64,000 nucleotides of DNA, from positions 446,146-510,145 of the forward strand of contig CP082927.1 of NCBI GenBank assembly GCA_023038255.1, read 5' to 3'. Position numbers and translations under genes: made by a program. This document shows positions 39,872 to 41,905 of this stretch, piece after piece. Every line of letters begins with the position of its first letter. Position 1 is the stretch's first letter. The DNA is from Candidatus Peribacteria bacterium. GTDB taxonomy: Bacteria; Patescibacteriota; Gracilibacteria; Peribacterales; Peribacteraceae. Under the pieces are notes generated by a model that saw only the letters and a program-made list of their open reading frames with translations, had not been told where the DNA came from and did no database searches.

Positions 39872-40996
39872 ATGGCTTCTCTTCTCCTCTCCGATGGAAC
39901 TGTCTGGAAAGGCGTTTCTTTTGGTGCAAAAACGGACTCTGACGGAGAAGTGGTGTTCAATACAGCCATGATGGGCTATCCGGAAAGTATGACGGACCCC
40001 AGTTATCGCGGACAGATTCTGGTGACCACCTTCCCGCTCGTCGGAAACTACGGTGTGCCGAGTGAGGAACTGAATGAGTGGGGATTTTCCAAAAACTTTG
40101 AAAGCGAAGCTATTCATGTGAAGGGATTGATTGTTACCCAGGTGAGCGAGACATACAGCCACTTCGATGCCGTGAGTTCACTGCAGAACTGGATGGAGCA
40201 CCACAATATTCCGGGAATCACCGGCATCGATACACGCGCTCTTACAAAACATCTGCGCGAAAAAGGGGTGATGCTCGGACGGATTGTTGCCGACGACGAA
40301 GCGACAACGCAGACAGACATCGCAGGCTTTGATGATCCGAATCTCCGAAACCTCGTGGCGGATGTCAGCTGCACGGAAATGATCACCTACGATCCGCCGG
40401 CCGATGCACCGAAGACTGGACTCACGATTCTTGCGTATGACTGCGGCATGAAACGAAACATTATCCGGAGTTTCCTGAACCGCGGTGTGAAAGTGGTCCG
40501 CGTGCCGTGGAACTTTGACATGATCAACTACGACGGACAGATCGACGGACTCTTCATCAGCAATGGCCCGGGCGATCCTAAGACATGTATCCCCACCATC
40601 GACGCCATCAAGAAATCCATTGCCGCAAATATTCCGACCTTCGGTATCTGTCTGGGAAACCAGCTCCTCGCACTCGCGATCGGCGGTGATACCTACAAAC
40701 TTCCGTACGGTCACCGCGGTGCAAACCAGCCGTGTGTGGAAATTCCGTCAGACGGCAGTGAGCCGCGTCATTGTATTATGACATCGCAGAACCACGGATT
40801 TGCTGTGAGTGATGAGCTTCCGTCCGGATGGCGTGTCTGGTGGAAGAACGCAAATGATGACACGGTCGAAGGCATCCGCCACGATTCGGGGAAATTCTTC
40901 TCAGTCCAATTCCACCCCGAAGCAACGCCGGGTCCGGAGGATGCGAATTATTTGTTTGATGAGTTTGTGCGGGTGATGACGGAGAAAAAAGGATGA
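39872..40996 (+). CDS. carA: carbamoyl-phosphate synthase small (glutamine amidotransferase) subunit
   Basis: 374 aa. GEVVFNTAMMGYPESMTDPSYRGQILV, GATase nucleophile elbow GICLGNQLL, C-terminal FSVQFHPEA. Confidence 0.9.
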   Translation: MASLLLSDGTVWKGVSFGAKTDSDGEVVFNTAMMGYPESMTDPSYRGQILVTTFPLVGNYGVPSEELNEWGFSKNFESEAIHVKGLIVTQVSETYSHFDAVSSLQNWMEHHNIPGITGIDTRALTKHLREKGVMLGRIVADDEATTQTDIAGFDDPNLRNLVADVSCTEMITYDPPADAPKTGLTILAYDCGMKRNIIRSFLNRGVKVVRVPWNFDMINYDGQIDGLFISNGPGDPKTCIPTIDAIKKSIAANIPTFGICLGNQLLALAIGGDTYKLPYGHRGANQPCVEIPSDGSEPRHCIMTSQNHGFAVSDELPSGWRVWWKNANDDTVEGIRHDSGKFFSVQFHPEATPGPEDANYLFDEFVRVMTEKKG

Positions 40997-41079
40997 CGAG
41001 GAAGACAAGGATGACAAAGAAGACGAAGAAGTTTCATTAGTACTTTGTTTCTTCGTACTCTTCGTCTTCCTCGTCATCC
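40991..41079. repeat. long hairpin built from 9-nt GAnGAnGAC units, between the convergent carA and FNR-like genes
   Basis: The outer 16-bp perfect stem is GGATGACGAGGAAGAC (40991-41006) paired with GTCTTCCTCGTCATCC (41064-41079). The arms are tandem nonamers (GACGAGGAA GACAAGGAT GACAAAGAA GACGAAGAA). Confidence 0.85.
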
Positions 41080-41796
41080 TTAAATATACCCCTCCACATG
41101 CAAATCCGCTTTCTCCACTTTCCATTCTTCCAGAGCGAGCTGCTTCATTTCCTTTGTCATCTCCGGACTGCCACAGACATAGATATTTTTTTGGGAGAAA
41201 TCTTTGCAGATCAACTGTACTAACGACTGCACCCGTCCTTTGTGTCCGGCCCAGTCGTCGTTGTCTCCACTCAGGGCAATGTGCAGGTAAAAGTTTTCGT
41301 ACTGCTGTGCCAGTTTTTCAAATTCTGCTTTCCAGAACAAGTCTTCCGTATGGCGCACGCCGAAGACGAGATCAATCTGCTTCGTGAATCCGGATTCCAG
41401 TGCATCCATAATCTGTGAGCGGAAGGGGGCGACGCCGGTGGACGTTGCAATGAAGAGCAGGTCTTTCGGGTTTTCTTTATTGATGACAAAGTTTCCGAAC
41501 GGCCCCTGTGTGCGTACGGTGTCACCTTCTTTCAGTCTGGACTCAATCCACATACTCGCACGGCCGCCTTCTTTCAGCTTGGCGACAAAGAGCAATGCAT
41601 CTTCCATCGGTGTCGATGCAATCGAGAATGCGCGCGTCTGGATGTTTGTCGGATCATCCGGCAGGGCGACATCAAACAGGACGAACTGTCCGGCGCGGAA
41701 TGTGAGTTCACCGGGACGTTTGAACGTGAATGCGTAGACGTCATGCGCGATTTTCTTGTTGCCGGTGCATAATAGTTGATAACTGGGAACGGGCAT
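41080..41796 (-). CDS. FNR-family FAD/NAD(P)-binding oxidoreductase
   Basis: RAFSIAS (FAD), GPFGNF, IATSTGVAPFRS (NAD(P)), YVCGSPEM. The track ORF extends to 41832 as MPSSSSSSSSKK, but those codons lie in a 9-nt-repeat hairpin arm, so ATG 41796 (MPVPSYQ) is preferred. Confidence 0.7.
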   Translation of the reverse strand: MPVPSYQLLCTGNKKIAHDVYAFTFKRPGELTFRAGQFVLFDVALPDDPTNIQTRAFSIASTPMEDALLFVAKLKEGGRASMWIESRLKEGDTVRTQGPFGNFVINKENPKDLLFIATSTGVAPFRSQIMDALESGFTKQIDLVFGVRHTEDLFWKAEFEKLAQQYENFYLHIALSGDNDDWAGHKGRVQSLVQLICKDFSQKNIYVCGSPEMTKEMKQLALEEWKVEKADLHVEGYI

Positions 41797-41803
41797 TTTC
41801 TTT

Positions 41804-41905
41804 GAGGAAGACGAGGATGACGAAGAGGGCAAAGAATACGAGGAACACCAGTGTAGCAGATTTCTTCGTCATCCTCGTCTTCCTCGTACTCTTCGTCTTC
41901 TTTTC
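41804..41905. repeat. second 9-nt-unit hairpin, upstream of the FNR-like gene
   Basis: 22-bp perfect inverted repeat GAGGAAGACGAGGATGACGAAG (41804-41825) / CTTCGTCATCCTCGTCTTCCTC (41864-41885) with a 38-nt loop. Further nonamer units extend to about 41905. Confidence 0.85.

Follow-up and report, generated by a model that had tools for sequence, protein, structure and literature searches.

Two long hairpins, termed H1 and H2, flank a gene for an FNR-like oxidoreductase in the 64,000-nucleotide stretch analyzed here (the window), which comes from the genome of a groundwater bacterium of the Candidatus Peribacteria. H1 (40989..41081, without strand) is a gene-less palindromic element between the stop codons of two convergent genes: the FNR-like gene itself (41080..41796, minus strand; Pfam FAD_binding_6 and NAD_binding_1), a core gene of the host, and carA for the carbamoyl-phosphate synthase small chain (39872..40996, plus strand; Pfam CPSase_sm_chain, 4.3e-50, and GATase, 2.4e-51), whose last codons and stop lie inside the hairpin. 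H2 (41801..41905, likewise without strand), also gene-less and palindromic, lies between the FNR-like start (41796) and the stop (41916) of the gene upstream, which encodes an F420-0:gamma-glutamyl ligase-like (CofE-like) protein (41916..42653, minus strand; Pfam F420_ligase, 4.7e-48). We consider it probable that H1 and H2 are independent gene-less derivatives of a cassette that carries a gene of the 23S_rRNA_IVP family (PF05635, hereafter IVP) and is laid out like the intervening sequences (IVSs) of 23S rRNA. Such elements would be mobile in evolution and stable between strains.

The arms of both hairpins are tandem nonamers with the consensus RAGGAWKAC. On the plus strand, the left arm of H1 (40989..41033) reads AAGGATGAC GAGGAAGAC AAGGATGAC AAAGAAGAC GAAGAA, followed by GTTTCA. 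The right arm (41049..41081), in purine sense on the minus strand, reads AAGGATGAC GAGGAAGAC GAAGAGTAC GAAGAA and starts directly after the FNR-like stop. The initial annotation had correctly placed a long perfect outer stem here, which is 18 bp (40989-41006 / 41064-41081) instead of 16 bp long. It was also right that the hairpin occupies the entire gap between the two genes, as the stops are 83 nt apart, the FNR-like stop (41080-41082) abuts the right arm, and the carA stop (TGA, 40994-40996) is contained in the first nonamer of the left arm. The minimum free energy (MFE) of the H1 RNA is -46.3 kcal/mol for the plus strand (z = -8.1) and -45.8 kcal/mol for the minus strand (z = -9.1), and none of 200 shuffled sequences matched this fold. 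H2 consists of GAGGAAGAC GAGGATGAC GAAGAGGGC AAAGAATAC GAGGAA in the left arm (41804..41845, plus strand) and AAAGAAGAC GAAGAGTAC GAGGAAGAC GAGGATGAC GAAGAA in the right arm (41862..41903, purine sense on the minus strand), where two additional nonamers extend out to 41903-41905. Its perfect stem just upstream of the FNR-like start had been recognized before as 22 bp with a loop of 38 nt; it comprises 23 bp (41804-41826 / 41863-41885) with 36 nt separating the arms. H2 has an MFE of -49.6 kcal/mol (z = -5.4) and the top score among the inverted repeats of the whole genome, and its end is only 7 nt away from the FNR-like ATG (41796-41794).

The arms of H1 and H2 are also complementary to each other, over 43 nt at 77% and over 26 nt at 92%. 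A pattern of two nonamer units with at most one mismatch matched 18 times in the window as opposed to 0.10 matches expected from shuffles, and a three-unit pattern matched 36 times in the genome, its reversed control pattern not once. Neither hairpin holds an open reading frame (ORF), with only about 12-36 nt between the arms or perfect stems. An Rfam search with the hairpins returned only sub-threshold look-alikes of miRNA precursors, namely generic hairpins. The arms can indeed be translated as poly-Asp/Glu or as poly-Ser, as had been proposed, and the units are codon-periodic. A coding reading of H1 and H2 was ruled out because both lie outside the ORF limits of the orthologues. The extended FNR frame adds LPSSSSSSSSKKM ahead of the true start MPVPSY, and this start is conserved in orthologues.

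The genome containing the window (G000) is a single contig of 1,239,242 bp with 51.7% GC and a completeness of 99%, in which genes were called by ORF heuristics. A genome-wide census bore out the suggestion of a dispersed family resembling repetitive extragenic palindromes (REPs) or miniature inverted-repeat transposable elements (MITEs). The nonamer family has five full hairpins, H1 (genome 487134-487226) and H2 (487949-488048) among them, besides a split copy and at least one single arm. The other full hairpins are A (223190-223291) in a fused ORF of lysS and an HD-domain gene (lysS-HD), E (531976-532069) in the convergent gap at tsf, and F (751930-752024) upstream of recG. J (1190591-1190635) is a single arm, and D (521672-521716 / 522096-522140) is a split pair of arms enclosing an IVP gene. 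When aligned in purine sense, each arm contains four, sometimes three, full nonamers and a terminal GARGAA, which is followed by (N)TTT in six of the seven 'left' arms. Tandem, convergent and divergent contexts were all seen, including a position between divergent starts (upstream of recG), one just before a start codon (H2) and one in frame (lysS-HD), and the flanking genes have no functional coherence. Three of the 15 strongest hairpins in the genome are nonamer hairpins; most of the others are built from heptamer arrays, several of them of the GGGTTAT type. In total, G000 has at least five unit families and only two IVP genes. Neither the nonamer elements nor the GGGTTAT arrays showed a consistent orientation bias relative to replication, for which GC skew places the origin at ~1.21 Mb and the terminus at ~0.57 Mb.

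A five-unit nonamer array on the plus strand near the end of the window (63948-63992; GAGGAAGAC GAAGAGGAC GAGGAGTAC GAAGAAGAC AATGACGAC) is possibly another single arm. It has no inverted partner nearby and, read as protein, would form the acidic C-terminal end (…EDEEDEEDEEYEEDNDDDVGSIISVMS) of a doubtful short ORF. Two acidic nonamer-like tracts elsewhere in the genome were rejected as family members, being ordinary coding sequence: the one at 803030 belongs to an acidic, His-rich protein, and the one at 793606 is a repeat inside the reading frame of its ORF.

The split copy D connects the nonamer family with a protein-coding gene. Its arms, 45 nt each with a perfect complementary run of 23 nt, flank a 118-aa ORF (521716-522072, minus strand) that matches 23S_rRNA_IVP, the S23p four-helix-bundle family, with an E-value of 2.6e-33. 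This cassette D (521672-522140) lies 34 kb downstream of H1 and H2 and fills exactly the space from the ychF stop to the ATG of the next gene. The nearest solved homologues of its protein, 2GSC and 2RLD, were each deposited with five chains. At the 3' junction of the cassette, the IVP stop TAA is followed by AA and then TTCCTC. The same form of junction, T(A/G)AAAA-YTCC, recurs at the single arm J, and hairpins A, E and H1 have it in their loops; the loop of hairpin A also retains the 5' junction of cassette D, GAAGAATGA. Gene-less hairpins and the cassette thus share both arms and junction, and the junction is suggestive of the hairpins being cassettes without the ORF. The second and only other IVP gene of G000 (879302-879634, minus strand; locus 879236-879730) is enclosed by inverted GGGTTAT heptamer arrays, and GGGTTAT units also form gene-less hairpins and many single arrays in this genome. 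Matches to the Y1 transposases associated with REPs (RAYTs; PF01797) and to reverse transcriptase (PF00078) were both absent from the 99%-complete G000, while control genomes were positive for the transposase. When the cassette D protein was considered as the Avd protein of a diversity-generating retroelement, the bAvd-like match scored 28.6 bits, under the cut-off of 40.

Among 41 relatives with genomes of ~1-1.5 Mb, the number of PF05635 genes per genome ranged from 0 to 24. At 27 fetched IVP loci, we compared flanking inverted repeats with 161 control placements; 13 of the 27 loci scored above the 95th percentile of the controls (10), and 12 of them above the control maximum (12). The arms at the relatives' loci are arrays of period 7, 9, 8 or 6, with periods and units called by simple autocorrelation thresholds. 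In a tree of 74 IVP proteins based on 123 columns, all 15 period-9 cassettes fell into one clade of 17 proteins (ultrafast bootstrap (UFboot) 98, approximate likelihood-ratio test (aLRT) 88), and none of the 57 proteins outside this clade had period-9 arms. Parsimony required one change of the period-9 state, as opposed to 9-15 changes in the ten printed values of the 300 label shuffles that were run. The 9-nt period is linked to one IVP clade, in which the unit consensus differs widely: GAAGAC type, GGGGACC type, TCCAAGGAA, TAAGAGGAA, AGGCAACCG, GAAAGGATG and others. The mean number of units per arm was 4.35 both at period 9 (20 arms, ~39 nt) and at period 7 (26 arms, ~30 nt), and 4.0 in the four arms of period 6. 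Nonamer hairpins of the same general type were found in the genus members G001, G003 and G004 and in the family member G014, and none in the class-level outgroups.

Two further observations concern the IVP loci of the relatives. At locus L072 (G005, C2:125027-125341), the cassette arms are TTAGGG/GGGTTA hexamers, the same repeat as in vertebrate telomeres, and the protein falls into a clade that also contains period-8 and period-7 cassettes. In one IVP clade (L099, L100, L104, L105, L120-L124), GTGTACGATCGTAC, a near-identical version of a palindrome found upstream of recG in the genus (see below), lies between the 5' arm and the start of the gene.

Comparison of orthologous sites demonstrated turnover of the elements between species. 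At the H2 site, the closest species, G002, whose FNR-like protein is 94% identical, has an IVP gene between two arms of nonamers of the GGGGACC type, in the order cofE-arm-IVP-arm-FNR. G004 has the same cassette as G002 beside FNR, G003 an array of the GTTTAAAA type, and G005 an empty gap of 14 nt. The hairpin at the H1 site is non-periodic in G002 (z -7.1), made of heptamers in G004 (z -5.3) and of octamers in G003 (z -3.5), and G005 has a periodic gap without a significant fold (z -1.0). G000 and G001 both have nonamer hairpins in the tsf gap of copy E; other unit families occupy it in G002, G003 and G005, and the site was unreadable in G004. Copy F upstream of recG was seen in G000 only, and the site is empty in G002 and G005. 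Cassette D at ychF and hairpin A are common to G000 and G003 and align colinearly. Perfect stems measure 18 bp in H1, 23 bp in H2 and 19 bp in F, none of which was seen at its site outside G000, while the stem runs are 8 bp in A, which is also present in G003, and 13 bp in E, at whose site G001 has a nonamer hairpin. This pattern of stem quality fits decay after insertion better than selective maintenance. Two other strains, from drinking-water and soil metagenomes, differ from G000 by 5 and 19 substitutions in 1061 bases around the FNR-like gene. All of these are in coding sequence (CDS) and none in either hairpin, without any indels or length polymorphism of the arrays. Metagenomes yielded no reads indicating excision or an empty site. 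Two apparent joints in metagenome contigs were discarded, as they resulted from cross-mapping of other family copies, such as the lysS hairpin, onto the arms.

Several observations stand beside these site comparisons. The hairpin in the carA/FNR gap of G002 (L043, C79; GTGTCATGCTGAGCTCGTCGAAG…CTTCGACGAGCTCAGAGTGACAC) is very stable and probably a member of a further dispersed family of palindromes. Strains from two other metagenomes have a highly divergent cofE-like gene from ~42033 onward (42033-42230, dozens of differences in ~200 nt). In these strains, the two hairpins and the FNR-like gene between them are almost identical to those of G000, which suggests a recombination boundary ~130 nt past H2. 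lysS and the downstream HD-domain gene form one frame of 747 aa (genome 222595-224838), in which hairpin A is a translated linker (…KKTKSTKMTMGTKNENESENSATSSSSSSSLSSSSS…). The fused ORF is conserved in all five genus genomes with 714-747 aa (714-728 aa outside G000); the linker contains an orthologous nonamer hairpin in G003, an inverted heptamer hairpin in G005, and non-repeat sequence in G002 and G001. Just upstream of recG (genome 751905-751920), a palindrome GTGTAC-N4-GTACAC is present in all genus genomes. G000 has four perfect copies of it (74448, 598922, 708073, 751905), where 12 fixed bases would lead one to expect ~0.15. The palindrome is a candidate operator and may be damage-inducible.

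How could an IVP cassette give rise to H1 and H2? Each arm is an array of about 4-5 tandem nonamers (RAGGAWKAC) terminating in GARGAA, and the full form of the element would be that of cassette D, which has the layout of an ORF-bearing IVS but a messenger-RNA context. The hairpins would be the remainder in which the two arms directly adjoin a short loop and the inner junction of the cassette, T(A/G)AAAA ahead of the pyrimidine arm, is kept, presumably derived by loss of the ORF from cassettes and not by entry of an ORF into hairpins. Gain, loss and replacement of the elements at gene boundaries take place on the time scale of species, and between strains they are fixed and invariant. The presumably pentameric IVP protein might recognize or propagate the arrays. 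The transcribed stems could be transcript-end structures or substrates of RNase III, for which the host has a gene in the window (5407..5793, plus strand; genome 451552-451938; domain match PF14622, 3.0e-42).

There are, however, observations that weigh against a derivation from IVP cassettes. The likeness of the loops to the cassette junctions is short (9-17 nt), and other unit families of G000 lack a resident cassette. Pairing between arms taken from separate hairpins is as good as that between the two arms of one hairpin (mean local score 17.5 across hairpins and 17.7 within, with only a weak trend in the longest perfect run), so the stems could result incidentally from the opposition of two arrays. 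Related nonamer hairpins are present in G001 and G004, but the IVP loci fetched from these incomplete assemblies included no cassette with matching arms; as the assemblies of the relatives are fragmented, absence of the cassette in G001 and G004 is not established. Comparing filled with empty sites revealed no target-site duplication at the H2 site (G005) or at the recG site (G002 and G005), and the strain contigs contained no transposition or excision event, both hairpins being unchanged. IVP proteins also have no known activity (PMC11270868).

As one possibility, the initial annotation had H1 and H2 bracket the FNR-like gene in the manner of the inverted ends of a REP/MITE-type element, which would make them the termini of a single composite unit of MITE or transposon type. 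The mutual complementarity of their arms would agree with such a unit, as would G003 (L045, C2:184200-189000), where a single repeat family, GTTTAAAA octamers with a GTTGCAGGTT core, likewise lies on either side of the FNR-like gene. We nevertheless regard a composite unit as highly improbable. The FNR-like gene was found in 57 of 61 family genomes, and wherever it is present in the genus outside G000, in four genomes, its orientation is convergent with carA. Either hairpin alone makes up a complete palindrome, and the two sites have independent histories in the relatives, with unrelated occupants in G002, G004 and G005. The FNR-like gene is not cargo of the element. That two elements of the same family flank one gene is still unlikely by chance, at a few percent by rough estimate (7 elements, ~1100 gaps). 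The octamers in G003 form a counterpart to the nonamers in G000, and elements may have spread locally or been exchanged between adjoining gaps. We give just as little credence to the arrays being products of simple-sequence slippage or remnants of coding sequence, such as acidic or Ser-rich tails, without any identity as elements. Although the units are codon-periodic, one copy is translated in frame, and acidic coding tracts with similar words exist, slippage or coding remnants would account poorly for the inverted pairing, the uniform 4-5 units with a GARGAA end, the shared inner junction, the constant length between strains and the association with IVP genes, and H1 and H2 lie outside conserved ORF limits.

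A host-selected function at transcript ends has more in its favor, and we still judge it unlikely as the primary explanation. The hairpins would then be bidirectional intrinsic terminators or stems protecting 3' ends that serve the needs of a host without Rho, with the IVP link being secondary. The RNA-binding domain of Rho was indeed not found in the 99%-complete genome. An A6 run within carA codons (40985..40990, minus strand) places UUUUUU directly after the H1 stem on the minus strand, a terminator-like geometry for the FNR-like transcript only, and outer units often start with AAA, which gives UUU after the stem. Three of four sister species have a significant hairpin of different sequence in the carA/FNR gap, and the four readable sister species carry repeat-built inverted arrays in the convergent tsf gap, as seen from sequence only. 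Moreover, the hairpins are invariant in the two other strains, whose adjoining CDS has 5 and 19 single-nucleotide differences. On the other side, members of the family lie between divergent starts, 7 nt before a start and in the lysS-HD frame, where termination or cleavage would be harmful, in the last case by truncating the mRNA of lysyl-tRNA synthetase. The terminators without a T-tract that the initial annotation offered as its other option would likewise not suit the entire family, and H1 does have a U-tract on the FNR strand. With 18-45 bp, the stems of the family far exceed those of terminators, and short terminators of canonical form, with T-runs, are found nearby. Copies at sites shared with other species have decayed stems, and in G005 neither the H1 site nor the H2 site has a significant hairpin. 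A scan for terminators listed neither H1 nor H2, and the sole RNA run from the source sample, a 10-Mb polyA library, contained none of the sampled words. It would be plausible for some copies to act as terminators or RNase III substrates, and H1 may have been co-opted as a terminator of the FNR-like gene since Rho is absent. We conclude that the elements are probably insertions in the first place, retained wherever the host tolerates them, and that a few sites such as H1 may have seen co-option. More doubtful still is a role of the arrays as operator-like sites for a pentameric IVP protein that regulates or packages neighboring transcripts or DNA, which would make the hairpins targets instead of relics. 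The tie between repeat period and protein clade, the mean unit count shared by the 9- and 7-nt periods (4.35; 4.0 for the four 6-nt arms) and the five chains in crystals of homologues would suit such sites. Two IVP genes facing at least five unit families in G000, a copy number of 0 to 24 in close relatives, which is unlike a regulator, and the incoherent functions of the flanking genes do not.

A further and more tentative idea concerns the protein itself. The pentameric IVP protein could conceivably be the missing partner of short-period arrays, with one subunit per unit and the clade setting the period, which would permit mobilization without transposase or reverse transcriptase. Whether its units are of 9 nt, as in one clade, or of 7, 6 or 8 nt, as elsewhere, an arm would then have about five of them. 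The arrays would be generated, copied or mobilized by the protein, H1 and H2 would be its non-autonomous products, and the IVSs of 23S rRNA would be copies that landed in rRNA. We know of no mechanism for the short-period tandem repeats at bacterial gene boundaries. The locus ties these repeats, in a minimal genome of 1.24 Mb without a REP-type transposase or a reverse transcriptase, to IVP proteins, which have been without a known function since rRNA IVSs were described. The discriminating observation is that the repeat period, 9 or 7 nt, tracks the protein clade, whereas unit sequence and insertion site do not. For the annotation of genomes from the candidate phyla radiation (CPR), it is of practical relevance that the elements supply stop codons, abut start codons and can be translated as protein linkers.

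Several known systems share features with the nonamer family. As with Rho-independent terminators, hairpins occur at gene ends, and H1 is followed by a U-run on the FNR strand. Yet the stems are 2-4 times longer, most copies have no proper U-tract, many are not at 3' ends, and H2 and the copy upstream of recG do not fit by position. A diversity-generating retroelement with an Avd protein differs from the cassette by its reverse transcriptase, to which the genome has no match. The elements resemble REPs and their hairpin-forming pairs (REPINs) as dispersed extragenic palindromes that fill intergenic gaps, often at convergent gene ends, and are stable within strains. They differ from them by the lack of a Y1/RAYT gene in G000, a low copy number (about 6-8), and much longer, internally periodic arms, and the associated gene encodes a four-helix-bundle protein, not a transposase. 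Like MITEs, they are short, ORF-less elements with terminal inverted repeats that outnumber a gene-carrying relative with the same ends. They differ from MITEs in showing no target-site duplication and in an order of units that is not colinear from copy to copy. The relative with the same ends encodes an IVP protein, for which no activity is known, and no recognizable transposase.

Heptanucleotide repeats at gene boundaries have been described as TAACTGA repeats in Beggiatoaceae and cyanobacteria (PMC4679880) and as G-rich heptamers in Xanthomonas and Nostoc (PMC4692102). The nonamers similarly form short arrays of 2-6 units, mostly intergenic near start or stop codons and occasionally in frame, but they have a period of 9, form hairpins as inverted pairs and share their units with the arms of an IVP cassette. 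True heptamer arrays coexist with them in G000, which is rich in such arrays. The TAACTGA repeats are essentially only direct repeats, with IVP genes unmentioned (PMC4679880), and neither paper on heptamer repeats draws a link to IVP genes (PMC4679880, PMC4692102). The Peribacteria genome paper does not mention such hairpins. The present analysis adds the variant with 9-nt units and its confinement to a single protein clade, the finding that unit counts are equal across periods, and the gene-less copies of a CPR genome together with the histories of their sites.

Of the published systems, the ORF-bearing form of the 23S rRNA IVS, as in Coxiella burnetii and Leptospira, comes closest. RNase III cuts IVS stems in other bacteria, and in Salmonella it cleaves ORF-less IVSs. 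In Coxiella, the IVS combines a terminal stem of 28 bp with an ORF for S23p that is preceded by tandem GACAGAT heptamers, and RNase III excises it; S23p is a homopentamer, and the origin of IVSs is unexplained and probably selfish (PMC4990558). Insertions in CPR rRNA genes also carry 23S_rRNA_IVP genes of unknown function (PMC11270868). In contrast to IVSs, the nonamer elements lie outside rRNA, among protein-coding genes, before starts and once in frame within an ORF. Their arms consist entirely of 4-5 tandem units, which have 9 nt and not 7, and several dispersed gene-less copies occur per genome. Because they lie outside rRNA and have no ORF, H1 and H2 were not filed as IVSs. What the elements share with IVSs is the long terminal inverted-repeat stem, 28 bp in Coxiella and 18-23 bp of perfect pairing here (23 in the cassette arms), a full form, cassette D, that encloses a PF05635 ORF adjoined by short tandem repeats, and the occurrence of both ORF-bearing and ORF-less forms, which are also on record for IVSs.

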